Numbered from the stretch's first letter, positions 5,266 through 52,036 are shown. The stretch is 64,000 nt of DNA from Patescibacteria group bacterium (GCA_041653675.1 JBAZEY010000003.1:13284-77283); one strand, 5' to 3'. Notes: generated by a model not told the origin, from the sequence alone. Numbers and translations are program-made.

Positions 5266-7905
5266 ATGAGGAGGATAATTTACACGATCGCCGCAGTTGG
5301 ATTTAGTTTTTTTCTTGGCCATGCCGTCTTGGCCGCTCGTTTTGAATTATCTCCGGCTACAACAGGATTTATTACTGGCTGTGATTCGGCAGTAAACATT
5401 GAAATTAATACCGAGGGAGAAACTTCTGATGCCGCAAATATTTTGATTCATTATAATCCCGCGCAAATTGAAATTGTTGATTCTAATCCCGCAGCGGGTG
5501 GAGTTCAAATAAGAAATGGCAATGCGTATGAAGCATATGCTGATAATATTGTTTTGCCGGCTGAAGGATTGATTCGCTTAACAGGATTTTCTTTTTTGGA
5601 ACAGCTTACCGGCCAGGCTACTTTGGGCACAATTATTTTCCGTCCGCGAGCGGGCGCGGCCGGTACGGACATCACGATAGAATATGTTGCTGGCAGCACG
5701 ACCGATAGTAATGTTGCTGAATATATAACAAGCGATGATCTTTTGACTGGCGTAACAAACGGTTCTTATACCTTCCGCGGCGGTTCTTGCGTGGCTGATG
5801 TCACGCCGCCGAATGTCACAAATCCCGATCCGACGCCAGATGAACATGATGTGCCGCTTGATTCAAATGTTACTTTTGACATTCACGACAGCCAATCAGG
5901 AGTTGATCTTGATACATTAACCATAAATGTTGACGGCGTCGTTTACACGCGAGACGGCGTAAATAGATTTTCTTTTGTCGGGACACCTGAATCGTATGCG
6001 GTAGCAATTAATCCAGATGCGGATTTTACTCCGGGTGCCACGGTTCTTGTAGAAATCAATGCAGCAGATTTATCAGGGAACGCGATGACGGCTTATCGTT
6101 ATATCTTTAATCAGCCGGCTGGACCTCCACTCATTCCGCCATCTTGTGAGGCTCTTGGTTGCGCCGCTCCCGCCGCTTGCACGGCCGAGCCGGTTCTTCC
6201 GGAAGACATTGCAGAGGAACCGACCGTTCCGGAATCACAAGCCCTAGATCTTGAAGATTTTTCTTTTTACGTGGCTGACGGCACCCTCAAAATTTATCCA
6301 ACAAGAAGCGGAGAACTTGTCACTTTATTAAATTCACCGCTTGTCTTTTCTATTTCTGAAAGTAAATTTCCACGTGAAGTAGAAAGGGTCGCTCTGACAA
6401 TGAACGGATTTTCTTACCTTTTGGGTTATAGTGATCAGGCTGACGCGCGGCAAACAACAATTCAAACGCCGCCCGGAGCTGGTCGCTTGGCATTTTCAAT
6501 TTTGATTGATTATATTGACGGAGCCCACGACAGAGTTGATGGGACGCTCAATCTTTTATCTAAAGGTTTTATTTGGCAAGGAACAACAGCCGGTAAATTA
6601 GCCGGAGCTAAAGTAACTCTTTATGAAGAGTACGCCAGCTTCCGCGTTTGGGATGCTGCTCCTTACCATCAAATCAATCCGCAAACAACTGATTCTTCTG
6701 GCCAATTTTCTTTCTTGGTTCCTCCTGGCCGTTATTATTTGCTTGTTCAAAAAGATGGATACCGCGATCAAGCTACTACGGTTTTTGAAATAGCCAACAA
6801 TGTTGTGAATCCTGGCGTGGAAATTCTTGTCGTTCCGCCGACGTTTGCCGAGGTCTGGGATCCGGCTGCGCCAGTCACGGAAAATATTCAGAATGTCGCC
6901 CAAAATATTGGTGAAAAAACAATTTATGCTACCGAAGTTATTCGTAAAGATGTTTTGGATAATCCCGAAGTAGAAAAAACAAATGAAAGCATTGCCGCGC
7001 CGGCCGTGGCCGCAGTGGCAATCGTAAGTTATGGGACAGCGATTTCTCTCGGTTCACTTTTGCCATTTTTACAATTACTTTTTACTCAACCCATCCTTCT
7101 CCTTTTTCCAAAAAGACGAAAAGGCTGGGGCATTGTTTTTCATTCTTTATCAAAAATGCCGGTGGATCTTGCGATTGTCCGGCTTTATGAAAAAGTTACC
7201 GGCCGACTCGTGCAGACTCGCGTTACCGACAAAGAAGGCCGCTTTGCTTTCTTTGTTCAGCCGGGCCAATATTTTATCAAAGTTGTTAAACCGAATTTTT
7301 CTTTCCCGACGGGATATTTAAAAAATAAAAAAGAGGATGTTAAATATTTAGATCTTTATCACGGCGAAGAGATTACAGTGACGGAAAAAAATACGCTTGT
7401 CACACCGAATATTCCGATTGATCCGGTGGAAGCGGAGCGCGGCAAACCGGATAGGAGAATTGTTCTCGCGCATTTTGGCAGAAAAGTTCAAAATGTTGCC
7501 GCCCTCTTGGGAGTTATCTTCGCTGCAATTTCAGTTTTAATTTCTCCAAAACTTTGGATGGTGGGAATTTTGATTGGCCATTGCTTGCTCTACATACTTT
7601 TCCGAAGGCTCGCTCGCAGCAGAAAACCAAAAAGCTGGGGCATTGTTTATGAAACGAAAACTAAAGCGCCGGTCGGCCTTACCGTGGCAAGAATTTTTGA
7701 AACCGAATATAACAAGTTGCTTGAAACTCAAGTTACCGATGGTCGAGGCCGTTACGCGTTCTTGGTTGGAAATAGTTCTTATTATGTGACTTTCAGCAAA
7801 CCGGGATTTTCGCCAAAACGGACGGAAACAATTGATCTCCGCGGAAGAAAAGAAGGAGCAGCAGTGGGATTGGACGTGGGGTTGGACTTAGAAAAAACAT
7901 CATAA
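5266..7905 (+). CDS. Membrane protein: N-terminal cohesin-like domain, Ig-like (Big) domain, three CarboxypepD_reg-like beta-sandwich domains and 2-3 TM segments
   Basis: Signal peptide. FELSPATTGFITGCDSAVNIEINTEGE...ILIHYNPAQIEIVDSNPAAGGVQIRNG follows the cohesin pattern (f.l.YDp..lE.v.v..G). The stretch VTPPNVTNPDPTPDEHDVPLD...TLTINVDG is Ig-like. CarboxypepD_reg-like domains are KVTLYEEYASFRVWD...SSGQFSFLVPPGRYYLLVQKDGY, and a duplicated unit KRRKGWGIVFHS...AIVRLYEKVTGRLVQTRVTDKEGRFAFFVQPGQYFIKVVKPNFSFP versus SRKPKSWGIVYET...TVARIFETEYNKLLETQVTDGRGRYAFLVGNSSYYVTFSKPGFSP. Each unit is preceded by a TM helix. Confidence 0.6.
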   Translation: MRRIIYTIAAVGFSFFLGHAVLAARFELSPATTGFITGCDSAVNIEINTEGETSDAANILIHYNPAQIEIVDSNPAAGGVQIRNGNAYEAYADNIVLPAEGLIRLTGFSFLEQLTGQATLGTIIFRPRAGAAGTDITIEYVAGSTTDSNVAEYITSDDLLTGVTNGSYTFRGGSCVADVTPPNVTNPDPTPDEHDVPLDSNVTFDIHDSQSGVDLDTLTINVDGVVYTRDGVNRFSFVGTPESYAVAINPDADFTPGATVLVEINAADLSGNAMTAYRYIFNQPAGPPLIPPSCEALGCAAPAACTAEPVLPEDIAEEPTVPESQALDLEDFSFYVADGTLKIYPTRSGELVTLLNSPLVFSISESKFPREVERVALTMNGFSYLLGYSDQADARQTTIQTPPGAGRLAFSILIDYIDGAHDRVDGTLNLLSKGFIWQGTTAGKLAGAKVTLYEEYASFRVWDAAPYHQINPQTTDSSGQFSFLVPPGRYYLLVQKDGYRDQATTVFEIANNVVNPGVEILVVPPTFAEVWDPAAPVTENIQNVAQNIGEKTIYATEVIRKDVLDNPEVEKTNESIAAPAVAAVAIVSYGTAISLGSLLPFLQLLFTQPILLLFPKRRKGWGIVFHSLSKMPVDLAIVRLYEKVTGRLVQTRVTDKEGRFAFFVQPGQYFIKVVKPNFSFPTGYLKNKKEDVKYLDLYHGEEITVTEKNTLVTPNIPIDPVEAERGKPDRRIVLAHFGRKVQNVAALLGVIFAAISVLISPKLWMVGILIGHCLLYILFRRLARSRKPKSWGIVYETKTKAPVGLTVARIFETEYNKLLETQVTDGRGRYAFLVGNSSYYVTFSKPGFSPKRTETIDLRGRKEGAAVGLDVGLDLEKTS

Positions 7906-7991
7906 AATTCAATACTTCATACAAAAAAATCAAAAAAGAAAAAATAAAAAAGTCGAAATAAAAAGCAAAAGCAAAAACAAAAAGTACCCAT

Positions 7992-10900
7992 ATGTTTAGT
8001 TCAGGAGGAGAAAAACCTAATATTAAATTACCATCCCAAAGCGGAACCAACTTAACTTTGTTGGTGTTTGCTTTGGGTATTTTGTCATTAGCAAGTATTG
8101 GAGTAATGACTCTTTCTGTTGTGAAACAACTTCGGCCGACAGCGTTCACGGCAATTAATAAACAGCTGAACTATCAAGGTAAATTACAAAACGCGGGAGG
8201 CATAACGCTCGCGGACGGAAATTACTCAATGAAGTTTTCCATTTACGACGATCCAACCGTCGGCTCGAGACTTTGGACAGAATGTGGCACAGTCGGTACG
8301 CCGACGGCTCGTACCGTCGCGGTTGCGAACGGGGTTTTCTCGGTGATGCTCGGAGATACAAATTCCAATTCTTGTCCCGGTGGAACGGATTCCAACGCCA
8401 TCACACTGGATTTTAATAGTGACAGTTATTATCTTGGTTTTACCGTGGAGTCCGATTCAGAAATGCTTCCGAGAAAACGATTGGGTGCTTCGGGTTACGC
8501 TTTCAACGCGGATTTATTAGACGGATTTAATACTTCAGCCGCCGGCGGTTCGGTCGCTTTCGTGCCGGTGACGGACGCAAGCGGACATTTAACTTTGACG
8601 CAAAATTTAATTTTGGGTGGAGTTTTAAAAAATGCAGACGGTACTGTCGGCGCGCCGAGCTATACCTTCACGAGCGACCTTGATACAGGACTTTATTATT
8701 CAGCGACACAAATAAATATTGGTGTCGGCGGAAGCACGGTGGCAAATGTAAGCGCTTCGGGTTTAGCCGTAGATACGGTCAAAACTTTAACCGCGACGAC
8801 TTTAACTTTAAAAGGCACGGTTGCCGACGGCGGAACAGCTGTTGGCGCGACGATTGGTTCCAACAGTACTCTTTCTACTACCGGCGCGAAACTTGCTTCC
8901 TTTGTAAACAACACTACTGAGAAAGCATATATAGATAAAGATGGTTATTGGAACGCCCCTAATGGTGCGGCTGGCACTCCTTCAATTACTTTTGCAAATG
9001 ATAAAGATAATGGATTTTTTTATTCTTCCGCTAATAATTGGCGGGCGGTTGCTAACGGAACTGCTATTTTAGAATTTGATGCAAGTGGCATTTATGTTGG
9101 TGGTTCAGGAAACATAGGGTCAGGTAATAATATTACTCTTACTCTTAAGAGTTTTCAGGTCGATGGTGCCGCAAATGTTGCAGTTGCTCAGGATACTTAT
9201 TATGCGTTTGTAACTGCTGGAGCTAAACTTTTTTCTTGGAAAAATCATCAAGTTGAAAAAGCATATGTTGATTATCTAGGCTCGTTCAACGCCGGAGCGG
9301 GGACAAATCTTTTACCAGCGTATTCGTTTGTTGGCGATCCAAATACTGGAATATATAATCCGAGTGCAGACCGTGTAGATTTAGTCGCAGGAGGAACCGT
9401 TCAACTCGCAATAACCTCTGGCACTATTTATTTTGATAATATGAGGGCTTTGAACTTGGTGAGTCTTGGATTAAGAGGGGCGATTGCCGACGGAGCAAGT
9501 GCGATCGGCACAAAAATGGGAAATGCTATAGCTCTTACCACTGCTGGAGCAAAGATTGTAAGTTTTTATAATGATGCTTGGGTAACTGAAAAAGCATATA
9601 TTGATAAAGACGGAAATTTTTATGGCCCCGGGGCAAATTTTTCCGGTCTCTCTGTCTCGTCGGCTGTTTATACCGACGCTTCAAAAAATTTAACTTCTAC
9701 AGCTCCGGCCACGGGCACGATTGGATATTGGTCCCGCGCCACGACAACTTTGTCTCCAGCTACAGCCAATGATATTGTCGCGGTCACCGGCAACTCCGGA
9801 GATCTTTTAACTTTAACTTCAACCGCAACCGGCGCTTCTAACAAAGCTTTAAGTATTGCCGCTTCCGGCGCAACAGTTGGCACAGATTACGGCGCATATA
9901 TTTCAAATACCGGCGCGGCCACAACAAATGTCGGTCTCTACACGACCGCCTCTGGCGCAACAAATAACTACGCTGCGATTTTTGACGCGGGGTATGTTGG
10001 TATTGGTAATACAACTCCAACAGCGTCTTTGACTTTAACTCAGGCTGCCGGCACGACTGGCACTCCCTCAGCTTTTATTATTACGGGGGGTGCTCACACC
10101 GGAATAACTGCGGCGACAGAAGATATTGGGGTGAATTTAAATTTTTCAGCGAATAAAACTTGGGCGGCCGGCGCCGGACCATTGGCCACTCAAAGGGAAG
10201 TCGTGGTTCAAGCCCCAACTTATATTGGTGATGTAGGCGGAGCATTGACCATGACTGATGCGGCGACATTCTATATCTCTGGTGCGCCTACGGCCGGGGC
10301 GAATATGACTATTAGTAATCCGTGGGCATTATGGATTGATGCCGGAAATGTTAGACTAGATGGAAATTTAAAAGTAGATTCACTTTCCGCTTCCTCCGCT
10401 GTTTATACTGACGCTTCCAAAAATTTAACTTCAACCCCGCCTGCTACGGGCGCGATCGGATATTGGTCTCGTACCGGCACGACTCTCTCTCCCGCGACGG
10501 CGAATGATGTGGTTAATGTCGATTCCAATACTGTGGGTGCAGCTATTAGTTCTACGGCGACGAATAGTGGCGCGGTTGCAAACTCTGGCGGTAATTTTTT
10601 GGCTGCCGGAACTAGCGGAGCAATGGGCGTTTATGGTGGCGCGAGCGGCGCTGGCACGGTTTACGGTGTTTATGGCCAAGCTTCTAATCCTGGGGCAGTA
10701 ACAAATTATGGTGTTTATGGAACGGCCGCCGGAGATACGGGCGTCGGTGTTTTTGGCTCTGCTACGGACACTGGCGCAGCTATAAACTACGGCGGTTACT
10801 TTACGGCCGCTGGAACGGGTGGCGCAGTTGGTATTTATAGTGAAGCGACTGGAACTGGCGGTGCGGCTGTTTCCGGTCTAGCTAGTGCTACTACCAGTGC

Positions 10901-13900
10901 TCTTAATTTTGGCGGATATTTTGAAGCAAGAGGTGACCATAGCTGGAGCTTCGGAGTTAAGGGATATCTTCCGAATAGTGTTGACGGTAAGGCAGTAGTC
11001 GGACATGCTGCGGAAACGACATCAACAAATTATGGCGGTTGGTTTCAATCAGATGGCGCAACGGGCATTGGAGTTTATGGTAAATCAACTTATACATCAA
11101 CGGCGACTGTTAATTATGGCGGTTGGTTTAGGGCAGACGGTCTGGCGGGTCGCGGCGTTTATGGCGAAACGACCACTGTGGGAGCAACCATTACTCACGG
11201 CGGCGATTTTTGGGCGGCGAGTACGGGGACAAGTACAAGTGGCGCGCGCGGCGTAGCAACTGGCGCTGGAACGGTTTATGGCGTTGAGGGTCTTGCTCAA
11301 AGTACCGGCGCGGTTACAAACTTCGGCGGCTATTTTACTGCTAGCGGTGAGACTGGCCGCGGCGTTTATGGCATGGCTGACAACACTGCCGTTGCGGCAA
11401 CCAACTATGGCGGTCACTTTACGGCCGCGGGTGCAGGTGCCAACACTACAGGCGTTTATGGTGAAGGCAGCAGCTCCGGCGCGGTTACAAATTATGGTGG
11501 TCGCTTTATCGCTGCAGGTGAAACAGGCATTGGCGCTTATGGCAATGCGACTTCAACTGGCGCGACAGTTAACTATGGCGGAAAATTTTATGCTGGAGGT
11601 TCGGGAGGAGCATACGGCGTCTATGGCGAAGCCAACAATGTTTCCGGAACAAACTATGGCGTCTATGGCAAGGTAACTTCTGGTTATGCTGTTTATGGTG
11701 ACCACGGAACAGTTTTTGGTTATTTGGCTGATAAAAATTATGGAGTTTATGGCCAATACAGCGCGACTCAGTTTGGCTATATAGGCGATTCAACTTATGG
11801 TGTTTATGCCCGTGGGACGATTGGCGTTTATGGAACAGACGGAACAAGATATGGACAATTGGGAACGGGAAGTAATGGTGTGTATGGTTATTATGACGCC
11901 ACGCATTATGGTTATATTGGCGGCGCAACCAATGGTGTGTATGGCACTGGCGGCACAGGCGAAGGCGTGCGCGGCGAAGCAACGACTGGTTATGGCGTTA
12001 TTGGTTTAGCTAGCGATACCGGCGCGGTCACAAATTATGGCGGATATTTTTCAGCGGCCGGCGATACTGGTCAAGGCGTTTATGGAACAGCTCCTGACGC
12101 TGGCGCGGTTATAAACTATGGCGGATATTTCTCTTCCGCCGGTACAGGCACCGGCGCGACCGGCGTCCTTGGCACAACTGCTGCCGCTGGTACGGTTTAT
12201 GGCGTTCAAGGAAAAGCGACGAACACGGGCGCTGTCACAAACTACGGCGGATATTTCTTGGCGTATGGCGACACGGGCCAAGGTATCTATGCCGGTGGCA
12301 TGGATACCGGCGCGGTCACAAATTATGGCGGTTATTTTGAAGCCGCTGGCACAACTGGCCGCGCGGTTTTTGGTGCGGCTCTGGCAACCGGAGCGTCAAC
12401 TGCGTATGGTGGATATTTTACATCGGCAAGTGATACTGGCCGCGGCGTTTATGGCGCAGCGACTGATACCGGCGCGGTTGTAAATTACGGCGGATATTTT
12501 TCTTCTGCCGGCACGGGCACTGGCGCAGCCGGCGTTTATGGCACAAGCGCTGCCACGGGAACGGTTTACGGAGTGCAAGGTTACGCTTCAAACACAGGCG
12601 CTTACGAAAATTATGGCGGTTATTTTGTCGCCAATGGCACAACTAGTCGCGGCGTTTATGGTCAGGCCAATACTTCTGGCGCGACTGTAAGTTACGGCGG
12701 TTATTTTTCATCTTCTAGTACTGGCGCAGGCACAGCTGGCGTTTACGGTATAGGCGCCGGCGCGGGTACGGTTTATGGCGTTACTGGTTTAGCTAGCAAT
12801 ACCGGCGCGGTTACAAATTATGGCGGCGTTTTTTCGGCCGCTGGCACAACTGGCCGCGCGGTGTATGGCGAAGCAAGTAGCTCGGGGGCGACAGCGAACT
12901 ATGGAGGTTACTTTACGGCAGCCGGAACAGGTGGCGCTCGAGGCGTCTTTGGTACTGCCAGCGGTGCGAGCGGCACCAATTACGGAATTTACGGCAGCGT
13001 AACTTCTGCAACAGGCTACGCAGGTTATTTCACCGGCGGTTACGGCGTCTACGCGAGTTTGGCGCATATTGCCGGAACCGGAGCGGGCGGAGAAGAGCTT
13101 GACGTGGAAGGACAAATCCAGTTTGATCTTGATGGTACAACCGATACATTAATTGGTGTTTGTAAAAGCGTGGCTGATGGGGCGGGCGTGGAAGCTGATG
13201 TAGAATTCCGTGATTGTACTTCAACGCCTTCCGATATTGCCGAATGGTATGATACAACTGGCACTGAGGCCGGGGATGTTGTTGCGGCAACCGACGACAC
13301 AGTTACTTTCCAAGGTGAAATGTATGATCCATTAACTGGCTTGCCGCTCGGCACACAAGAAACTATTACGGCAACAATTTTGACTCCCTCATCAGAGCCG
13401 TATCAAAAAACACTCCTTGGCGTAGTTTCTACAAACCCTTATGAATCTTTTGGTAAGGGCGTGATCGATGTTTCACATTTGCCAAATCCAATAGCTGTTG
13501 TTGGCCGTGTGCCAACTAAAGTTTCCACTGAAAACGGCGTCATCCGTCCGGGCGATCCGATTACTTCTTCATCAGTTACCGGCGTGGGCATGAAAGCAAC
13601 TAAACCAGGCATGATTATTGGTTACGCGGTTGATCACTATTCTGGCGCTGGCATTGGAACAGCTTTTGTTAACATTAATCCAGGCTGGCATTCTGGTTTT
13701 GCTATAAATACCGACGGAGTGATTTCTTTATTTGATGATGATTTTACTTTTAATACTTCCGGCATAGCTGATGGAATAATTCAGGGATATAATTCCAAAG
13801 GCTTGGCGTTCCGCGGATCTGGTTGGGACGGTGCCGCGGCGCAAAATATAGAAATGAAAATTGGTAACGTTGTTACGGACGCGTCAAATTATAAATTATC

Positions 13901-15230
13901 AGTTCTAAATAATGCGGGAACCGAAGTAGCTTATCTTGATCAGGCTGGAGCTCTTGGACTTTCTGGGAAATTTTATCCTGCCTCGCCGACTGGCGCGCAG
14001 ACCGACGCTTACATTTTTTATCGCAATAACCGCATTAGAACCAACGCCTCTGGGTGGGCGACCGGTTCATTTGATTTTGCGGAAATGTTTTTATCACGCG
14101 AATTATTAGAAGCCGGCGATGTTGTCATCTTGGATGAAACAACAAATGAGTATGTGAAAAAATCGACCGCGGCTTATGATAAGATGGCGCTCGGCATTGT
14201 TTCCACCGAACCAGGTTTTTTGGCCGGAACTAATGTTAATTTTGATGATCCTTCGGCAGATCAAGGTTATCCGATTGCTTTGGCTGGCCGTGTGCCGACA
14301 AAAGTTTCCGCGGAAAACGGACCAATCAGGCCTGGCGATTTTCTTACGACTTCAACTACTTCTGGCGCAGCCATGAAAGCTACGGAATCGGGCATAATCA
14401 TCGGCACGGCGCTTGAAAGTTTTGATGGCCCAGGAGTTGGTTTAATCAAAGTTTTTGTAAATCTTGCTTGGTACAACGTAACCGGAGACGTGACGCCGGT
14501 TAGTGAAATGTCACAGCTCACTCTTTCTGGTGATTTGAATATGAATGGTAATTACATTTTGAATGTTGGGAAAATTGTCGGACAAGATGAAAAATGGAGT
14601 ATTGATGAAAATGGAATTTTAAAAATTAAATTAATCGCGGAAGACGCGACAGAAAAAGAAATGTTTGGACTTTCTTCGGCCAAAGTGGAACTGACTTTGT
14701 CCGGAACCGACCGGCTGGAAAATGGGACCAAGATGATAGATCTCAGTTTAATTGATCCAGAATTTGTTAAAAATATTTCGGCCGAGACGCCGCTTAAAGT
14801 TGTGGTAACTTTAAACGAACAAGCTTATGGAGTCTACGTTGCTGAAAAAACTGCTTACAGTTTCCGCGTGGCGGAATTGAACGCCGGAACTTCCGACGCG
14901 GCTTTTGATTGGATTGTAATTGCGAGACGAAAAGGCTATGATGATCCGCCGCCGACCGAGGTTGCACCTCCAACCGAACCAGCTCCGGCTCCGAGTGAAC
15001 CGGCACCAGTAGAATCAACTCCGAGTGAGCCAGCGCCAAGCGAACCAGCACCGTCAGAGCCTGCACCTTCTGAACCAATTCCGACTGAACCAGCCCCCGC
15101 GCCAACCGAACCGGTACCAACTGAACCAGCCCCCGCCGAGCCGACTCCTGCGCCGACTGAACCAGCTCCAAGTGAACCCGCACCGGCGCCAACAGAACCT
15201 GCTCCAAGCGAACCGGCTCCGGCAATATAA
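7992..15230 (+). CDS. Giant (2412 aa) N-terminally anchored surface fiber-like protein
   Basis: N-terminal TM anchor (LTLLVFALGILSLASIGVMTL). A conserved domain (LNYQGKL...YYLGFTVESDSEMLPRKRLGASGYAFNADLLDG) is shared with 15415..17829. Two repeats of about 230 aa (SSAVYTDASKNLTST...GYVGIGNTTPTASLTL, tail-fibre-like motif). About 35 repeats of 20 aa (NYGGYF(T/S)AAGxTGxGVYG). A C-terminal module occurs twice (D(I/F)AE(W/M)...GDVV...LG(V/I)VST(N/E)P...AGRVPTKVSxENGxIRPGDxxTTS...AMKAT). Pro-rich PAPSE/PAPTE tail. Confidence 0.8.
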   Translation: MFSSGGEKPNIKLPSQSGTNLTLLVFALGILSLASIGVMTLSVVKQLRPTAFTAINKQLNYQGKLQNAGGITLADGNYSMKFSIYDDPTVGSRLWTECGTVGTPTARTVAVANGVFSVMLGDTNSNSCPGGTDSNAITLDFNSDSYYLGFTVESDSEMLPRKRLGASGYAFNADLLDGFNTSAAGGSVAFVPVTDASGHLTLTQNLILGGVLKNADGTVGAPSYTFTSDLDTGLYYSATQINIGVGGSTVANVSASGLAVDTVKTLTATTLTLKGTVADGGTAVGATIGSNSTLSTTGAKLASFVNNTTEKAYIDKDGYWNAPNGAAGTPSITFANDKDNGFFYSSANNWRAVANGTAILEFDASGIYVGGSGNIGSGNNITLTLKSFQVDGAANVAVAQDTYYAFVTAGAKLFSWKNHQVEKAYVDYLGSFNAGAGTNLLPAYSFVGDPNTGIYNPSADRVDLVAGGTVQLAITSGTIYFDNMRALNLVSLGLRGAIADGASAIGTKMGNAIALTTAGAKIVSFYNDAWVTEKAYIDKDGNFYGPGANFSGLSVSSAVYTDASKNLTSTAPATGTIGYWSRATTTLSPATANDIVAVTGNSGDLLTLTSTATGASNKALSIAASGATVGTDYGAYISNTGAATTNVGLYTTASGATNNYAAIFDAGYVGIGNTTPTASLTLTQAAGTTGTPSAFIITGGAHTGITAATEDIGVNLNFSANKTWAAGAGPLATQREVVVQAPTYIGDVGGALTMTDAATFYISGAPTAGANMTISNPWALWIDAGNVRLDGNLKVDSLSASSAVYTDASKNLTSTPPATGAIGYWSRTGTTLSPATANDVVNVDSNTVGAAISSTATNSGAVANSGGNFLAAGTSGAMGVYGGASGAGTVYGVYGQASNPGAVTNYGVYGTAAGDTGVGVFGSATDTGAAINYGGYFTAAGTGGAVGIYSEATGTGGAAVSGLASATTSALNFGGYFEARGDHSWSFGVKGYLPNSVDGKAVVGHAAETTSTNYGGWFQSDGATGIGVYGKSTYTSTATVNYGGWFRADGLAGRGVYGETTTVGATITHGGDFWAASTGTSTSGARGVATGAGTVYGVEGLAQSTGAVTNFGGYFTASGETGRGVYGMADNTAVAATNYGGHFTAAGAGANTTGVYGEGSSSGAVTNYGGRFIAAGETGIGAYGNATSTGATVNYGGKFYAGGSGGAYGVYGEANNVSGTNYGVYGKVTSGYAVYGDHGTVFGYLADKNYGVYGQYSATQFGYIGDSTYGVYARGTIGVYGTDGTRYGQLGTGSNGVYGYYDATHYGYIGGATNGVYGTGGTGEGVRGEATTGYGVIGLASDTGAVTNYGGYFSAAGDTGQGVYGTAPDAGAVINYGGYFSSAGTGTGATGVLGTTAAAGTVYGVQGKATNTGAVTNYGGYFLAYGDTGQGIYAGGMDTGAVTNYGGYFEAAGTTGRAVFGAALATGASTAYGGYFTSASDTGRGVYGAATDTGAVVNYGGYFSSAGTGTGAAGVYGTSAATGTVYGVQGYASNTGAYENYGGYFVANGTTSRGVYGQANTSGATVSYGGYFSSSSTGAGTAGVYGIGAGAGTVYGVTGLASNTGAVTNYGGVFSAAGTTGRAVYGEASSSGATANYGGYFTAAGTGGARGVFGTASGASGTNYGIYGSVTSATGYAGYFTGGYGVYASLAHIAGTGAGGEELDVEGQIQFDLDGTTDTLIGVCKSVADGAGVEADVEFRDCTSTPSDIAEWYDTTGTEAGDVVAATDDTVTFQGEMYDPLTGLPLGTQETITATILTPSSEPYQKTLLGVVSTNPYESFGKGVIDVSHLPNPIAVVGRVPTKVSTENGVIRPGDPITSSSVTGVGMKATKPGMIIGYAVDHYSGAGIGTAFVNINPGWHSGFAINTDGVISLFDDDFTFNTSGIADGIIQGYNSKGLAFRGSGWDGAAAQNIEMKIGNVVTDASNYKLSVLNNAGTEVAYLDQAGALGLSGKFYPASPTGAQTDAYIFYRNNRIRTNASGWATGSFDFAEMFLSRELLEAGDVVILDETTNEYVKKSTAAYDKMALGIVSTEPGFLAGTNVNFDDPSADQGYPIALAGRVPTKVSAENGPIRPGDFLTTSTTSGAAMKATESGIIIGTALESFDGPGVGLIKVFVNLAWYNVTGDVTPVSEMSQLTLSGDLNMNGNYILNVGKIVGQDEKWSIDENGILKIKLIAEDATEKEMFGLSSAKVELTLSGTDRLENGTKMIDLSLIDPEFVKNISAETPLKVVVTLNEQAYGVYVAEKTAYSFRVAELNAGTSDAAFDWIVIARRKGYDDPPPTEVAPPTEPAPAPSEPAPVESTPSEPAPSEPAPSEPAPSEPIPTEPAPAPTEPVPTEPAPAEPTPAPTEPAPSEPAPAPTEPAPSEPAPAI
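10590..13060 (+). repeat. About 35 tandem copies of a 60-nt / 20-aa Gly-Tyr repeat (NYGGYFxAAGxxGxGVYG) inside the giant gene
   Basis: Highly periodic nucleotide and protein repeat. It generates many spurious antisense ORFs in the six-frame track. Confidence 0.85.
14944..15227 (+). repeat. Pro-rich PAPSE/PAPTE low-complexity tandem repeat encoding the C-terminal tail
   Basis: gaaccagc(a/t)cc(g/a)(a/t)(g/c)(c/t)ga-type repeats encoding APSEPAPSEPAPTEPAPAP. Confidence 0.8.
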
Positions 15231-15410: not shown

Positions 15411-15438
15411 AAATGTGGATAATTTATTTAGTAATCTT

Positions 15439-17829
15439 CATATGTTTGATTACAAAGAAAAAAAGATTTCTCGGCAGCCAAAACGCAGAAAAACAAAATT
15501 GCGCCCTCTGGTTTTAATTTTAGGGATTTTTGCCGTGGCAAGTCTTGGTATTATTGCTATTGCCTTGTTGAAAAATTGGAGTTTTCCAGCTTCCGCAGCG
15601 CCAGGAATTTATAAGGTTTTAAATTACCAGGGAAAATTAGAAGATTCAGGCGGAGTTACGGTAGCTGATGGTGCATACAATATTAAATTTACAATTTACG
15701 ACGCAGCCGCGGCAGGAAATGTCCTTTGGTCTGCCCGAGAATCGGATGCTTGCGGCGCGGCTTTTAATCCTGCGGTAAAATCAGTCACAACTTCGCTTGG
15801 CGTATTCTCTACCCAACTTGGTGAGTCGGGTGATTGTCCGTTGAATTTAGATTTTAATAGTGATTCATATTATCTCGGCATAACCATTGGCGCTGATTCA
15901 GAAATGACTCCGAGAAAACGTATTGGCGCGGCCGGTTACGCTTTTAATGCGGATTTATTGGATGGTTTAACCACCTCTCTGGTCGGCGGCGCCTCTTCTT
16001 TTGTTCCCGCAACTGACGCTTCAGGAAATTTAGTTTTAACCGCCAATGTTACTTTTGACACACCCACTTTTTTTCTTGATTCTACTAATGATAATATTGG
16101 TATTGGTACCATTACACCAACCGCGACTCGTACCCTGGATTTAACGACGGCGAAAAAATATGGCATTTATGCCTCCTCAAGCGCGGCCATAAACCACATG
16201 GCGGTAATTTATGCCGAGGCAACGGACACAACAAACGTTGATCAGATGGGCGGATATTTTTCTTCAGCGAGTCCGAGCGGGAAGGGCGTTTATGGGGCAG
16301 CGGTTACAACGGGAAATCCGCTTGTCGCGAACCAGGGAGGATATTTTACCGCGGCTGGTGATTCGGGGCAGGGTGTTTATGGCGAAGGTTCAGCCTCTGG
16401 CGCTGTGACAAATTACGGGGGATATTTTGTGACACAAGGCGATACAGGATATGCAATTAGGGGCTTGGCTATGGCTACGGGTGGCGTAAACTATGGCGGA
16501 TATTTTAGAGCAAATGGTCCGGGCGGCTATGGAGTTTATGGCTACGCGGCGGATGCAAGTGCAGTGGCAAACTACGGCGGATATTTTACGGCAGCGGGTA
16601 CAGGCGCGGGAACAAGCGGTGTTTACGGTTTGGCATCGGGGGCTGGGGCAGTTTATGGTGTTAGAGGAGAAGTTTCAAACGCAACCGCAGTAACAAACTA
16701 TGGTGGATATTTTACCGCGGCTGGCAGTGGAGCTCTCGCGAGCGGTGTTTACGGAGAGGCTACTGCCGCCGGTTCAGTTATAGGTGTTAGGGGTTATGCG
16801 TCAGACCTTACTGCCGGAATTACAAATTATGGCGGATATTTTTCAGCTCAAGGCGGTACAGCCCGTGCCGTTTTTGGTGATGCCACCAATAATGGAGCAG
16901 AAATAAACTATGGAGGATATTTTACAGCGAGAGGAAGTGCTGTTGGCACCTCTGGAGTTTATGGGGAGGCGAGCGCGTCGGCTGCAGTCTACGGCGTTTA
17001 CGGAAAAGCTACTGACACTGGCGCGGTCGCGAATTATGGCGGATATTTTACTGCGGCTGGCGAGGACGGCGCTGCAGTTTATGGCGCAGCTACATCTGCG
17101 GCTGGCACGGCGAACAATGTAGGCGGATATTTTACGGCGGCGGGAGGTGGCGCAGATGCTTACGGCGTTTACGCTACTGTTACTGGGGGCGGCAACAACT
17201 TTGGTATTTATGCAAGTACGATATCAGCTACTGGCTGGGCTGGGTTTTTTAACGGTGGCAGGGGAATTTACGCTCTTCGTTTTTCAATTAATGACGGCAT
17301 CACCGTGGTTGATTATAATACCATTGGTCCGGCCCTTGCAGGTCACGTTGCGGCAGGAGAAATTACCGATCAGAACGATCTTTTCATTAATGGTAACTTG
17401 GAAGTTGACGGTGCCGTTTGGCTTGATGGTGGGCATACTGATTTGGCAGAAATGGTGGCGTATAGCGGAGAGGGTGAAGCCGGCGATGTTGTTGTGGTTG
17501 ATGAAAATAACGATAACTCGGCAAAGATTGCGGCCAAACCTTATGACCAAAGTATTCTTGGTATAATTTCTACCAAGCCGACATTGGTCATCACGGGTGA
17601 TATCACGGAAGGAAAATTAATGGCCGTAGCCGGCCGCGTCCCAACCAAGGTGACAAATATAAATGGAGCAATTCATCGTGGTGACCCGCTCACAACTTCT
17701 TCTTTGCCCGGTTACGCCATGAAGGCAACTGAAGCAGGGCCGATTGTTGGAAAATCTTTAGGTGAATGTGACCAACAAGAATGCGTCATTTGGGTTTTCT
17801 TAAATGTCAGTTGGTACGGAGGAATATAA
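15439..17829 (+). CDS. Paralogous anchored surface fiber-like protein (about 800 aa)
   Basis: N-terminal TM (LVLILGIFAVASLGIIAIALL). The same post-TM conserved domain (LNYQGKLEDSGG...YYLGITIGADSEMTPRKRIGAAGYAFNADLLDG), the NIGIGTITPTATRTLDL motif, about 15 NYGGYFTAAG repeats, and the shared C-terminal module (DLAEMV...LGIISTKP...AGRVPTKVTNINGAIHRGDPLTTS...AMKAT). Confidence 0.75.
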   Translation, partial: HMFDYKEKKISRQPKRRKTKLRPLVLILGIFAVASLGIIAIALLKNWSFPASAAPGIYKVLNYQGKLEDSGGVTVADGAYNIKFTIYDAAAAGNVLWSARESDACGAAFNPAVKSVTTSLGVFSTQLGESGDCPLNLDFNSDSYYLGITIGADSEMTPRKRIGAAGYAFNADLLDGLTTSLVGGASSFVPATDASGNLVLTANVTFDTPTFFLDSTNDNIGIGTITPTATRTLDLTTAKKYGIYASSSAAINHMAVIYAEATDTTNVDQMGGYFSSASPSGKGVYGAAVTTGNPLVANQGGYFTAAGDSGQGVYGEGSASGAVTNYGGYFVTQGDTGYAIRGLAMATGGVNYGGYFRANGPGGYGVYGYAADASAVANYGGYFTAAGTGAGTSGVYGLASGAGAVYGVRGEVSNATAVTNYGGYFTAAGSGALASGVYGEATAAGSVIGVRGYASDLTAGITNYGGYFSAQGGTARAVFGDATNNGAEINYGGYFTARGSAVGTSGVYGEASASAAVYGVYGKATDTGAVANYGGYFTAAGEDGAAVYGAATSAAGTANNVGGYFTAAGGGADAYGVYATVTGGGNNFGIYASTISATGWAGFFNGGRGIYALRFSINDGITVVDYNTIGPALAGHVAAGEITDQNDLFINGNLEVDGAVWLDGGHTDLAEMVAYSGEGEAGDVVVVDENNDNSAKIAAKPYDQSILGIISTKPTLVITGDITEGKLMAVAGRVPTKVTNINGAIHRGDPLTTSSLPGYAMKATEAGPIVGKSLGECDQQECVIWVFLNVSWYGGI
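16240..17260 (+). repeat. NYGGYF 20-aa tandem repeat region of the paralog
   Basis: Same period and consensus as 10590-13060. Confidence 0.8.
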
Positions 17830-39270: not shown

Positions 39271-39543
39271 ATGATGATCGGTCACCTCAAGGAGGAACTG
39301 AACGGCCCCGGGAGATATGTCTTTGGAATCTGGGATGGCACTGCCGGTTGTTACATCGGCGGAGCCGAGTGGATTGCTATCGTAACAGACGATCGTCAAA
39401 AGATGGCTGTGCGGCTTCAGGGAACGATTGACTTTTTTTCGTCGCAGGGATGTGACGGCGTGTCGAGTGACGTGCAGCGGATTATGACGCGCTACGGCGT
39501 CTCTCTATCGGAGAAGCTGAAGGTCTATCGGACCGCGAAGTGA
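39271..39543 (+). CDS. GC-rich orphan small protein (90 aa), unknown function
   Basis: RBS AAAGGAGGAcgcaATG. Composition is about 58% GC, in the spacer between uvrC and uvrA. Followed by a hairpin terminator. Confidence 0.5.
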   Translation: MMIGHLKEELNGPGRYVFGIWDGTAGCYIGGAEWIAIVTDDRQKMAVRLQGTIDFFSSQGCDGVSSDVQRIMTRYGVSLSEKLKVYRTAK

Positions 39544-42167: not shown

Positions 42168-42173
42168 ATATTG

Positions 42174-42202
42174 TTGACATTTTTTAATTTATTTGGAATA
42201 AT
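42174..42202 (+). promoter_or_regulatory. Sigma70-like promoter (TTGACA-17-AATAAT) driving the GC-rich element between uvrA and uvrB
   Basis: ttgaca ttttttaatttatttgg aataat. Confidence 0.45.
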
Positions 42203-42475
42203 TTTGTTATACGGTTTTGGTTTGCCACTTCGGCGAACCACCGTCCGAGGAAAGAAGGAGGTGGGAAGAACGGAGATGGAGAAGCGGTTCTCGCGGTTCG
42301 GCCTGCTGGACAAGGGCCAAGCGACGGCGCAGTCGGCGTGATGCGGTGATCCCGCTGGAGGTGAATGTCGGGGCACCCCTGACACGGGACGGAATTTCGT
42401 CGGTCAGCGGCTAACGGCCGCAACAGAAATGTGAGCCGGCGGGAAATTCTGGCAGCTCCGCAAGTCAAACCTTTC

Positions 42476-45693: not shown

Positions 45694-46449
45694 TTACCCG
45701 CAGCCGATTGGCGGGCACTTCACGGCAGTCCAGATTCCGAGGTTGTCGCCACTTGGCGAAACGATCGCTTCGCCCGTGACGTGCGTCTCGTCCGTAAAAT
45801 GGCCGACGTAACTTGTGCTGCCCGACGAGAAATTGATTTGCCGGCCATGGATCGTTGGCTCGTAGTAACTCGAGATGGCAGTAATGTCTCGGCCAGTTTG
45901 GCTGGCGTAGACGGCGACCGGAAAGGGGAAAGTTGCCCCGCTTAGTTCCCAGGCGCCTTCAGCGTTGATGACACTTTTCACGATGTGCGGCGCACTGCAG
46001 ACTTCCGGTTGGCAATCAACACAGCCTGCATCAATCGCCTCGCAGTCGTTCGTCACGCAAGCTGTGACAGTAGCCTCTGGTTCTGTATCACCGCCGAGGT
46101 CAAGAATGTCAGCCGTGGTTTGGACGAGCGTCATGGCTTCTCGCCGCGTTTCGATTGACGCTTCAATGGGTGCGAGACTCACAAGCGACGAATCGGAAAC
46201 GCGCCACTCCACGTCCTTGATCAGGATTCCATCGGAATTGTAGACGTAGGCGTGGAGTTTGTAGGCGTCGGCGTTCGTGGTGTCGCCGGTTGGCACGGGA
46301 GAAACGTTGGCTTCCGTGCTCGGAGTGCAATCCGAGACGATCGCCACAGCCATGGCGACACTCGAGTCGTTGGGACAGCGTTCGATGAACTCGTTCCGGC
46401 AGCCGAGCGCCATCACGAAAAGAACCGCAATCATCATCTTCGTTTTCAT
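45694..46449 (-). CDS. GC-rich lipoprotein, possibly Ig-like (Big_2-like) fold
   Basis: RBS TAAGGAGGA with promoter TTGAAA-16-TAAAAT on the minus strand. Lipoprotein signal MKTKMMIAVLFVMALGC. Multiple Cys pairs. Confidence 0.5.
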   Translation of the reverse strand: MKTKMMIAVLFVMALGCRNEFIERCPNDSSVAMAVAIVSDCTPSTEANVSPVPTGDTTNADAYKLHAYVYNSDGILIKDVEWRVSDSSLVSLAPIEASIETRREAMTLVQTTADILDLGGDTEPEATVTACVTNDCEAIDAGCVDCQPEVCSAPHIVKSVINAEGAWELSGATFPFPVAVYASQTGRDITAISSYYEPTIHGRQINFSSGSTSYVGHFTDETHVTGEAIVSPSGDNLGIWTAVKCPPIGCG

Positions 46450-46516
46450 CTGTATCCTCCTTACTGATTTTATTTTAACAAACTAAAAATAAATTTCAAA
46501 ATTTATAAAATAAAAA

Positions 46517-46560
46517 AAGGGGCTTCCGCGCGGCGTTACGAAACACCTTGCGGAAGCCCT
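46517..46560 (-). terminator. Strong Rho-independent terminator (minus strand)
   Basis: gggcttccgcaaggtgtttcgtaacgccgcgcggaagcccc followed by tttttttatttt on the minus strand. Confidence 0.7.
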
Positions 46561-47140
46561 TGGTCCCTTGGGAGTTATCCTCCAGATTTCTCCTTTGAAT
46601 CTCTCCCGGGAGTCCTTGGTCAGGCGCCCTTGCCCAACCTCATCGGGGAGTTAACCCCGTCTGGTAGCCCGTTTTTTCCCATCGGGCTCGGGGCGGCATT
46701 TTTAGACCGGAGTGACTGACATGCTAGCCAGCACGCGATCTTAACGAGGTAACCGCCGCTTTTCACTGCGTTTACGGCGCCGCGCTTGTGACGGCGATTG
46801 CAGCACCCCGACGGGTCTGCTGATTCTGGTCTTGGGGCGCATTCCATTTTGTCCCCAAAACTCTGGTTGCCCGTCCACCAGGGATCAGACGATTTATATT
46901 GCCGCGCCGTCTGCCAGGGCGCTTTAACCCTCCGCTCTGATCTCCTTCCCTTGGTAGCGAAGATGTGGAGCCGCCGGTTATCTACCTCAATCGAAGCACG
47001 GCTCCGATCGCGCCGTTTTGCGGGCACTGGTTATCTCCGAGCTCAAACCAATCCCGCCCCCGGGTAGACGAATTTATGTCCGCGCCAGCCTACCTTTGGC
47101 GCTCTGCCGATACATCCCCGTGCCACCACCTCCTTCTGTG
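46561..47140 (-). other. About 600-nt GC-rich non-coding block ending at the terminator
   Basis: No ORF with protein-like composition in any frame (only Arg-rich artefactual ORFs). Many local hairpins. It is contiguous with the GC-rich island and could be a structured RNA or a decayed coding remnant. Confidence 0.3.
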
Positions 47141-47473
47141 AAGAAAAACAAATTATTTATTTATCTTCATAGAAGGAAATAGGCGCAGAGAATTTTTAAG
47201 GTTAGTATAGATCTATTTTTTTGTCAAGAGTTTCGGAAAAAACAAAGAAAGGCCACTTGGCCCTCCTTGTTAATATATTTTAATATTAACTTTAAGAACA
47301 GCAGGAACAGCCTTTTAATCTCTTCGTGTGCTTCCGCAATTCTTTGCCCTTTTTGGTATTTTTAAGAGCGTGTTTTGTTCTGGCTTTCGCCGCGCTATTT
47401 TGTCCCATATTATTTAACTATTAATGATTTAATGAATTAATTTTGTCATATTGTCGGTAAGTCGTCAACTCCA

Positions 47474-48297: not shown

Positions 48298-48390
48298 AAA
48301 TTTTTAGAAATAAAAGGTAGCCCCACGAAGGCTGCTTTTTATTTTGCAAAAGATATTGACAAAAAGAGTCGGAGGTGTTAAAACAAAAAC

Positions 48391-48550
48391 GGTGAGGCGA
48401 CTGTGTCCTTGGCTTACTACGTAAGACCGGGGCGGTCGAGGACCAAGCCGCGCGCGGCTAACTCACGAGGGCGGATCGGATGTGGTCCCGCGACTCCTCC
48501 ACGACGGGGTGTGCAGTTCTAGACAACCTGCCCCCCGTCACTTTTTTTTA
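48391..48550 (+). ncRNA. Candidate small RNA (about 160 nt, GC-rich) with its own promoter and terminator; class unknown
   Basis: Promoter TTGACA(48356)-17-TAAAAC. Nested hairpins. Terminator gacggggtgtgcag...ctgccccccgtc plus T8. No plausible ORF or RBS. Confidence 0.35.
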
Positions 48551-48595
48551 TCAAAAAAACGCTCCGATCACCTCGGGGCGTTTTTGTTTAAAAAT

Positions 48596-49138: not shown

Positions 49139-49192
49139 TTATAGTCCGAATTGGTTTTGGCACGCAACCCATTCCTGGAGAAGGAGGAGAGG

Positions 49193-49465
49193 ATGGACAA
49201 GAGGTTCACGGATCTGACGCGCGAGGGAAGGATTCGACTGAGGGACTTCCTCCTGGCGCACGCCGAGAAGGGCGAGGAGGTCGTCGCGATCAAGGAGGTA
49301 CCGGTCGAAGGGAGGGCGCGTGTGGCCTTCGAGGAAGGCGAGCTCATCTGCGTTTCCCCCGTCTTCGTGGTCGAGGCGACCAAGAAGGAGATCTGGGTGT
49401 GCCACGCGTGGGACACCGAAGGGATTGTCCTCTGCCCCGATTACCCCTGCATCGTGCGGGTGTAG
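49193..49465 (+). CDS. GC-rich orphan small protein (90 aa), unknown function
   Basis: RBS GGAGAAGGAGGAGAGG then ATG. About 62% GC. Terminator ggccacctgaaacatggtggcc plus T-run at 49478-49515. Confidence 0.5.
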   Translation: MDKRFTDLTREGRIRLRDFLLAHAEKGEEVVAIKEVPVEGRARVAFEEGELICVSPVFVVEATKKEIWVCHAWDTEGIVLCPDYPCIVRV

Positions 49466-51781: not shown

Positions 51782-52036
51782 ATGAGGCTCCGTGAAGTGC
51801 GAATCGGGATGCGGGTGAAAGTGACGCGGCTCGGAAGCACGGAAGGCATGGCCGTTAAGCCAAAATATCTGCAGGCACGCCGACTTGGCGCTCGCGGCAA
51901 GATCATGAACTACATCGCCGGCCACGGTGGCGATTGTTGGTGGATCCGGCATGACGACGGAACGATCGGCGGCTACGGCTACATGGAATTCCAGCGCGTC
52001 CGGTCAAAGCGTCGGACCGGGGAGCGGACCAAGTAG
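51782..52036 (+). CDS. GC-rich small protein (84 aa), SH3/KOW-like and possibly DUF1918-like
   Basis: RBS TAAGGAGGG. Motifs IGMRVKVTRLG...GKIMNYIAGHGGDCWWIRHDDGTIGGY. About 62% GC. Terminator at 52055-52090. Confidence 0.5.
   Translation: MRLREVRIGMRVKVTRLGSTEGMAVKPKYLQARRLGARGKIMNYIAGHGGDCWWIRHDDGTIGGYGYMEFQRVRSKRRTGERTK

Follow-up and report, generated by a model that had tools for sequence, protein, structure and literature searches.

The locus and its noncoding block

The window analyzed here is a 64,000-nucleotide (nt) stretch of DNA from a Patescibacteria group bacterium (GCA_041653675.1, JBAZEY010000003.1:13284-77283), with positions counted from its first letter. On its minus strand, between a gene for a very basic peptide of 38 amino acids (aa) and a gene for a cysteine-rich lipoprotein, lies a guanine-plus-cytosine (G+C)-rich block that the original prediction had placed at 46517-47140 and read as either a large structured RNA or a decayed gene. 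The best explanation of this block is a stand-alone, highly structured noncoding RNA (ncRNA) gene of ~680 nt that belongs to a new family, is confined, in the collections searched, to one Patescibacteria clade, and is accessory; we give this explanation a rough probability of 0.7. That the block is a genuine structured ncRNA gene is very probable. Seven distinct RNA sequences were compared, that of the window and six diverged homologs (62 to 80% identity), all from Patescibacteria contigs. The main features of the locus are as follows.

46512-47194, minus strand: RNA transcription unit, ~680 nt, made up of a 5′ domain, D1 (47194-46882), and a 3′ domain, D2 (46881-46512)
47199-47227, minus strand: predicted promoter of the RNA gene, with a −35 box TTGACA (47227-47222), a 17-nt spacer, and a −10 box TAACCT (47204-47199); predicted start at ~47194
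46512-46559, minus strand: intrinsic terminator, a two-tier hairpin followed by U7; helix 14 of the pairing model
46472-46499, minus strand: predicted promoter of the lipoprotein gene, with an extended −10 box TGnTAAAAT; not within the RNA
45694-46449, minus strand: gene for the 251-aa lipoprotein, a two-domain all-beta surface protein, 3′ of the RNA
47292-47408, minus strand: gene for the 38-aa peptide (MGQNSAAKARTK...CSCCS), 5′ of the RNA, with a terminator at 47268-47245

The G+C content of positions 46500 to 47100 is 0.55 to 0.605, compared with 0.29 to 0.37 in the flanking spacers and 0.432 in the window; for the whole noncoding unit it is 0.57. A G+C-rich block is therefore present where the original prediction put it, and a local profile search of the window matched only the span of the RNA unit. 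Both limits, in contrast, need revision: the 3′ end extends to the U-run at 46512, and the 5′ end lies near the predicted start at ~47194, which puts position 47140 within the 5′ terminal hairpin.

Transcription signals

All seven copies carry TTGACA and a 17-nt spacer ahead of a −10 box, which reads TAACCT in the window and TGnTATTAT, TATTCT, or TATTTT in the others. At the 3′ end, the terminator hairpin (46559-46520, GGGCUUCCGC..GCGGAAGCCC) is built of an 11-bp G+C-rich stem and, inside it, a 6-bp stem; U7 follows at 46518-46512. The strong minus-strand terminator of the original prediction is thus borne out, and it covaries: 11 of its 17 pairs are altered on both sides, so that the letters of the stem are wholly different among the seven copies while pairing is kept. 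A simple terminator scan missed it because the two-tier stem exceeds the loop limit of that tool. With a sigma-70-type promoter and a terminator of its own, both conserved among homologs, the RNA is predicted to be an independent transcription unit. The lipoprotein gene, for its part, is preceded in every locus, whether RNA-bearing or RNA-less, by a TGnTAAAAT box and a strong ribosome-binding site. Since this promoter is separate from the RNA and is kept where the RNA is missing, the block is not needed as a leader of that gene.

Folding, covariation, and strand

For the minus strand of 46505-47195, the folding energy is −287.6 kcal/mol, compared with −247.5 ± 8.6 kcal/mol for dinucleotide shuffles (z = −4.66; 0 of 20 shuffles as good). 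The plus strand is also stable (z = −4.23), and the strand was therefore decided on other grounds. When the alignment is read on the opposite strand, 60 G-U cells become A-C mismatches, and pairing falls from 92.9% to 83.7%. This asymmetry, together with the promoter and the terminator, places the RNA on the minus strand.

RNAalifold predicted 112 pairs from the seven-sequence alignment, 27 of them compensatory, and 104 pairs in D2 from the four long forms, of which 19 were compensatory. On the same seven-sequence alignment we assembled a 107-pair model that includes the pseudoknots. Standard pairs occupy 92.9% of its cells, compared with 40.7 to 47.2% when the 3′ partners are slid by one to three columns. 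Both sides are altered in 26 pairs; sliding leaves 5 to 10 such pairs and column shuffling 12.7 ± 2.3, with none of 500 shuffles reaching 26, and the covariation score is 0.212 compared with 0.141 ± 0.009 in shuffles. Low folding energy, consistent pairing, and double changes all point to a large structured ncRNA.

Anatomy of the RNA

The elements of the pairing model are listed from 5′ to 3′ along the RNA.

47127-47181, minus strand: P1, the 5′ terminal hairpin; 21 pairs, 95.9% paired, 6 pairs altered on both sides
47063-47102, minus strand: pseudoknot module A; first stem (S1) GCGCC/GGCGC, loop GGUAGGC pairing with GUCUACC (47069-47063), A-rich linker GGACAUAAAUUC
47020-47057, minus strand: P3 hairpin, GCGGGAUUGG..CCAGUGCCCGC; 98.4% paired
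46967-47005, minus strand: P4 hairpin, GGAGCCG..CGGCUCC, with a variable loop ending in a conserved UAAAUUGG-like motif
46882-46922, minus strand: pseudoknot module B; S1 GCGCC/GGCGC, loop GGCAGAC pairing with GUCUG(A)UC (46890-46882)
46810-46881, minus strand: best-conserved stretch; H7 CUGGU..ACCAG (46881-46863), H8 UUGGGG..CCCCAA (46858-46832); supported by helices 9 to 11 of the pairing model
46815-46810, minus strand: CCCGUC, proposed to form a third pseudoknot with the H7 loop GACGGG; GAUGGG/CCCAUC in L014
46560-46809, minus strand: rest of D2; at least five hairpins, including helices 12 and 13

The 5′ domain, ~310 nt, is predicted to consist of P1, two paralogous H-type pseudoknot modules, P3, and P4, and the short forms of the RNA described below correspond to this domain alone. 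The 3′ strand of P1 bears an invariant GAAGGAGG (47136-47129), a perfect Shine-Dalgarno-like sequence, while its 5′ strand varies between C and U. P1 is connected to module A by the conserved joiner GGCACGGGAAUGAAUAGG. In that module, helices 2 to 4 are 97 to 100% paired; one pair exchanges among U-A, C-G, and U-G and another among G-C, A-U, and G-U. The linker of module A is extended in L002 by a GCAA-capped hairpin, with pairing preserved. In P3, pair 167-187 is G-C, C-G, or A-U. In P4, pair 216-249 is U-A in four sequences and C-G in three, and pair 217-248 is C-G, U-A, or U-G. The region 3′ of P4 is variable, and four homologs have an additional 5- to 7-bp hairpin there that itself covaries.

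The second stem of module B is GGCAGAC/GUCUG(A)UC in the long forms and GCAGGC/GCCUGU in the short forms, an A-U to G-C exchange. The pattern GCGCC-N1-4-SGYAGRC-N0-2-GGCGC, shared by modules A and B, which were compared by hand, occurs exactly twice in the window, with 0 expected by chance. It also occurs twice in every carrier locus except L002, which has it in module A only (the S1 of its module B has an extra A). The module A of L004 resembles module B in a BLAST self-comparison. The shared pattern and this B-like module A indicate that the two modules are paralogs.

The 3′ domain (~370 nt) is optional and likely holds, besides further hairpins, a third pseudoknot. Its opening ~100 nt are about 92% identical to L002, and at pair 400-461 of the proposed pseudoknot, four sequences have C-G and L014 has U-A. 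Downstream lie the hairpins AGAUCG..CGGUCU, GCCCG..CGGGC, GGGG..CCCC, GGUUGGGC..GCCUGACC, and GGGAG..CUCCC, together with the conserved single-stranded motifs ACCUCGUUAAG and GGAUAACUCCCAAG.

Coding potential

The longest open reading frame (ORF) in the block (46620-47027, minus strand) has a GTG start and encodes 135 aa of an arginine-rich product of low plausibility, although it is annotated as a gene on the near-identical sister contig L001. Its product had no Pfam match, and a full HMMER scan of 1.84 billion representative proteins returned only its own cluster. In the homologs, the longest ORFs occupy different frames and the opposite strand.

The adjacent lipoprotein coding sequence (CDS) served as a positive control for codon periodicity and for the phase of insertions and deletions (indels). 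Across seven pairwise comparisons, mismatches in the RNA were flat by position modulo 3 (e.g., 43/41/44; P = 0.13 to 0.95), whereas the CDS of the same locus pairs showed a third-position excess (e.g., 33/31/98; P = 1.6 × 10⁻³ to 3.6 × 10⁻¹⁶). Indels in the CDS were all multiples of three; in the RNA, 67 to 100% were not (10 of 15 to 13 of 13). The RNA is nonetheless at least equally conserved, with identities of 80, 71, and 70% compared with 78, 61, and 60% for the adjacent CDS. This pattern indicates that the RNA is under purifying selection for RNA structure and not for a reading frame. The original prediction was right that the block contains no credible ORF; a pseudogenized G+C-rich CDS, one of its candidates, is ruled out by these data.

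Two other coding explanations were rejected. An AUG 13 nt 3′ of the Shine-Dalgarno-like GAAGGAGG is invariant, but the frames that it opens run from 2 to >60 codons across homologs, and a small ORF at this position was therefore discarded. Descent from the small reverse-strand gene that occupies the same gap in some relatives (see below) was discarded because tblastn detected no similarity between that gene and the RNA.

Homologs, distribution, and history

Homologs were located in two ways. When the 135-aa pseudo-ORF was turned into a degenerate DNA probe and run against metagenome contigs, a single new locus emerged, L002, whose block is 69% identical over the 5′ 430 nt and precedes a lipoprotein homolog, as in the window. 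The lipoprotein family itself is very small: a set of 5.8 billion proteins holds 32 of its clusters, of which one is annotated as Candidatus Falkowbacteria. In the genome scan, the lipoprotein alone as a query returned 0 loci and the family alignment returned 2. DNA was fetched around 13 family members, which together with the window (and its near-identical sister contig L001) and L002 gave 14 distinct loci. Gene order is identical in all 14, and only the gap between the peptide and lipoprotein genes varies.

Long RNA, 660 to 780 nt: window, L013, L014, L004, L002
Short RNA, ~375 nt, the 5′ domain alone followed by a new terminator: L006 (identical to L007), L010
Empty gap: L003, L005
Small reverse-strand gene of one family, 72 to 93 aa (minus strand, locus coordinates): L008 (2101-2319), L009 (2129-2356), L011 (2076-2357), L012 (2101-2337), L015 (2126-2389), and L002 (114-332), which has both this gene and the RNA

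The RNA is present in seven and absent from seven of the distinct loci, always with respect to the same gap. It is therefore dispensable in sister genomes, which makes it an accessory gene. In the lipoprotein tree, carriers and noncarriers are interleaved across three clades, and the RNA has diverged in step with the lipoprotein gene beside it. Most simply, the element was ancestral, with repeated loss and one truncation to the 5′ domain. L002 aligns to the profile of the 3′ domain over its first 142 positions only. The small proteins encoded in the gap (72 to 93 aa, G+C rich) had no family match and are unrelated to the RNA sequence. The L004 locus comes from OZ246416.1, a chromosome of 886,192 bp whose size is typical of the Candidate Phyla Radiation (CPR) and whose gene order is of Patescibacteria type; its title, "uncultured Gammaproteobacteria bacterium," is probably a mislabel.

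Local nhmmer profiles of both domains, run on the window and 134 loci (1.34 Mb), matched only orthologous sites, so that the RNA is single copy within this set. IMG/VR viral contigs gave no match to two exact conserved motifs or in a pseudo-ORF scan, and BLAST found no similarity in GenBank phages or PLSDB plasmids. A degenerate pattern of the pseudoknot stems gave at least 120 matches, in G+C-rich phage contigs (median G+C, 0.65) with no further similarity, and these were set aside as chance. As far as the collections were searched, the RNA is confined to one Patescibacteria clade of Falkowbacteria-like CPR bacteria.

Searches for known RNA families

At gathering thresholds, Rfam 15 identified only three tRNAs in the 64-kb window, and ARAGORN likewise reported three tRNAs and no transfer-messenger RNA (tmRNA) there. 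With permissive filters (46300-47400, E ≤ 10), the only Rfam matches were chance microRNA or small RNA matches on two terminal hairpins and one to Twister-P5, and five homologs searched at E ≤ 1 gave nothing plausible. The Twister-P5 ribozyme model matched 46779-46821 (minus strand) with 22.8 bits and an E value of 0.033 over the 1.1 kb searched, below its gathering score of 37.6; the homologs showed no such match at E ≤ 1, and it is most likely due to chance. The search with cmscan that had been put forward along with the original prediction thus named no family for the block or for the five homologs, in keeping with its statement that RNase P and tmRNA hallmarks are missing.

The OLE, ROOL, and GOLLD covariance models had no match in the window, in the E ≤ 10 scan of the region, or in the five homologs. 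Hallmarks of OLE are adjacent oapA, oapB, and oapC genes and a host among the Firmicutes extremophiles or anaerobes. None of the three genes is present among the neighbors (Band7/SPFH, the 38-aa peptide, the lipoprotein, a cyclic nucleotide monophosphate [cNMP]-binding protein, and UvrB), and the host here belongs to Patescibacteria. For a group II intron there was no Rfam match (domain V/VI), even at E ≤ 10, and no reverse-transcriptase-like ORF nearby, which removes the intron fragment from the candidates first proposed. A TIGR array (PMC12045711) was also rejected, because the locus has no tandem array and no gene for a Tas or Nop domain. Our literature searches returned no relevant description of a large ncRNA in CPR bacteria or Patescibacteria. 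By these comparisons, the RNA appears to form a new family outside Rfam 15, yet one of the known large, ornate kind. The OLE/GOLLD/ROOL-like assignment of the original prediction therefore holds for the kind of RNA (large, ornate, and of orphan function) but not for membership in any of these families.

Neighboring genes

The AlphaFold model of the lipoprotein has a pLDDT of 87, and its best fold match is a pair of Ig-like domains from an S-layer protein. The 38-aa peptide is kept in all loci whose contig reaches that far; its cysteine-rich tail varies (CSCCS, CCCCQ, CCKCCK, or CTCCS) and is truncated in L013. Neither Pfam nor NCBIfam matched the peptide, and an exact look-up found no called gene with its sequence. 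Beyond the peptide gene lies a Band7/SPFH gene (plus strand), and beyond the lipoprotein gene lie a gene for the cNMP-binding protein and then uvrB, uvrA, and uvrC. Genes around the block mark the genome as belonging to Patescibacteria (CPR). The neighbors give no mechanistic link to the RNA and persist without it.

Two further G+C-rich noncoding segments were seen in the window. The first, at 48340-48570 (plus strand), lies between convergent Band7 and hemerythrin genes and has a TTGACA promoter-like box, ~170 nt of G+C-rich sequence, and a T8 run; its fold z score is only −1.6, and Rfam gave no match. The corresponding gap is only 54 to 59 nt long in L009, L011, and L015. The second, at 42168-42475, is the uvrB-uvrA spacer of a minus-strand operon (300 nt, 57% G+C) and contains no supported ORF. 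A distant relative, L004, retains it with 72% conservation over 340 nt (7882-8216), whereas L003 lacks it; its fold z score is −0.6, and Rfam gave no match. This spacer holds CCACCUCCUUC, an 11-nt complement of the invariant GAAGGAGGUGG of the RNA.

Short G+C-rich ORFs (84 to 104 aa) with good ribosome-binding sites stand amid AT-rich core genes at 39272-39543, 49151-49465, and 51782-52036 (plus strand). Together with the RNA, lipoprotein, and cNMP-binding genes, they form G+C-rich islets in a genome of 43% G+C. The other G+C-rich stretches of the window are very large ORFs at 7992-15230 (plus strand, 2,412 aa) and 15415-17829 (plus strand, 804 aa).

Proposed role and alternative explanations

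If the block is a stand-alone ncRNA gene, its product would act as a stable folded particle and not as an mRNA, an antisense regulator of a neighbor, or a leader of the lipoprotein gene. The twin pseudoknot core may serve as a platform that binds a protein, a small ligand, or a second copy of the RNA, much as in other large, ornate bacterial RNAs; the modules are obvious candidates for binding surfaces because they are duplicated and have invariant stems and A-rich linkers. P1 probably stabilizes the 5′ end. With its invariant Shine-Dalgarno-like GAAGGAGG, it would protect that end as a stem-loop, as a STAB-SD-type block to a 5′-to-3′ exonuclease, or as both, although a STAB-SD-like role remains a guess because the element is buried in the hairpin. 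Taken as a whole, this mode of action is tentative, and we consider it possible but doubtful. In a rather unlikely, more far-reaching variant, the RNA would be the first member of a CPR-specific class of large ornate RNAs whose duplicated core does more than act as a passive scaffold: it would mediate an RNA-only multimer, as recently reported for OLE, ROOL, and GOLLD, or catalysis, or contact with the ribosome through the invariant Shine-Dalgarno mimic.

Several points weigh against the explanation that we prefer. Promoter, start site, and RNA stability are all predicted from sequence. Only seven sequences are at hand, all from one syntenic position and related by descent, and the shuffle control ignores this kinship. 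Motifs rich in G+C (CCCG/CGGG) permit alternative pairings, so that P5, and PK-C versus the CCCGAUGGG helix, are tentative parts of the model. The S1 stems of both pseudoknots are invariant, so that covariation neither supports nor refutes them. The Shine-Dalgarno-like element, buried in P1, fits binding of the 30S subunit poorly, and the binding-platform and 5′-protection roles are solely what we infer.

As an unlikely alternative to a stand-alone gene, the RNA could be a very large cis-regulatory leader, riboswitch- or attenuator-like, for the lipoprotein gene: the pseudoknots would respond to a signal, and the terminator, as a switchable expression platform, would let transcription continue into that gene. 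The RNA does lie directly 5′ of that gene, on the same strand and 54 to 119 nt from its start codon, in seven of seven loci; it ends in a terminator; and paired pseudoknot aptamers are a known riboswitch design. However, a conserved lipoprotein promoter, kept in the seven RNA-less loci, intervenes between the RNA terminator and the ribosome-binding site, no conserved antiterminator pairing was seen in the seven-sequence alignment, and the sequence before the terminator is wholly different between short and long forms. A length of 680 nt is also far above the size of any known leader, and the fixed orientation of RNA and lipoprotein gene is accounted for by descent from one insertion.

Less probable still is that the RNA belongs to a mobile or selfish cassette or to a defense or toxin-antitoxin-like module, for instance as a guide RNA or a structured antitoxin whose protein partner is encoded at another site or no longer exists. 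Patchy presence in a single hypervariable intergenic slot, occupied in some loci by a small reverse-strand gene, would suit this idea, as would a self-contained cassette of promoter, RNA, and terminator, and a series of repeated pseudoknots, a terminator, and then a gene superficially resembles type III toxin-antitoxin loci. Nevertheless, no terminal repeats, target duplications, or transposase, integrase, reverse-transcriptase, or nuclease genes lie nearby, there is one RNA copy per locus and per 64-kb window, and the RNA was not found in the viral contigs, phages, and plasmids searched. Its divergence parallels that of the lipoprotein, which argues for vertical inheritance, and the downstream protein is a secreted lipoprotein with an Ig-like fold that is no RNase and also occurs without the RNA.

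A divergent member of a described family (OLE, ROOL, GOLLD, RNase P, tmRNA, or a group I or II intron) is very improbable: the length of ~680 nt, the many hairpins and pseudoknots, and the high G+C content in an AT-rich genome would fit, but no family reached its gathering score, matches at E ≤ 10 were chance matches only, the five homologs yielded nothing, and ARAGORN found no tmRNA. A decayed G+C-rich protein-coding gene is hardly credible, since, although the 135-aa ORF exists, is annotated on the sister contig, and lies among genes that are also G+C rich, it has no relatives, its strand and frame differ among homologs, codon periodicity is lacking, indels break the frame despite CDS-level conservation, tblastn gives no link to the slot genes, and the helices show compensatory changes.

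Significance and comparison with known systems

To our knowledge, densely structured bacterial ncRNAs longer than about 400 nt are very rare, and none has been described as specific to the CPR. The known classes of large RNA are biochemically unusual and include ribozymes, membrane ribonucleoprotein particles, and RNA cages. The tiny genomes of CPR bacteria leave scant space for dispensable sequence, and yet this ~680-nt RNA is kept above the nucleotide conservation of its protein-coding neighbor. Known so far from seven sequences in one synteny block of uncultured hosts, the RNA has a narrow distribution that sets practical limits. On the other hand, a natural "minimal" version of ~375 nt and natural knockouts in sister genomes make it a well-defined target for structural and comparative work, and a new RNA of >600 nt with three putative pseudoknots in CPR bacteria is directly testable.

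Among smaller elements, H-type pseudoknots with an A-rich third loop occur in the SAM-II and preQ1-II riboswitches, telomerase RNA, and viral frameshift signals. The modules described here are similar in design, with a 5-bp G+C stem, a 5- to 7-bp stem between the loop and downstream sequence, and an A-rich linker of 9 to 20 nt that would run along the first stem. Unlike riboswitch pseudoknots, they match no model, lie inside a larger RNA, are followed by no expression platform, and have a context that implies no ligand. Type III antitoxin RNAs consist of tandem direct repeats and a terminator next to a gene for a ToxN-like endoribonuclease. The present RNA differs in having only two diverged modules ~180 nt apart and, downstream, a secreted all-beta lipoprotein.

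The STAB-SD element of the Bacillus thuringiensis cry3A mRNA binds 30S subunits and blocks RNase J1 (PMC4113751). Our RNA is comparable in that a perfect Shine-Dalgarno-like sequence stands near its 5′ end and starts no conserved reading frame; in contrast to STAB-SD, this sequence is paired within P1, ~60 nt away from the predicted start.

The closest parallels in kind are OLE, ROOL, and GOLLD, for which cryo-electron microscopy structures are available (PMC12286853). Like these RNAs (PMC12286853, PMC9723947), the RNA appears to be a stand-alone noncoding transcript in the range of 400 to 800 nt with many helices and pseudoknots and invariant single-stranded motifs, and it is G+C rich relative to its genome, of orphan function, lineage restricted, and partly accessory. 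Unlike them, it matches none of their covariance models, is found in Patescibacteria and not in Firmicutes, Fusobacteria, or phages, and has neither oap genes nor a phage or tRNA neighborhood around it. It also differs from all three in its architecture, which combines an internally duplicated pseudoknot module with an optional 3′ domain.

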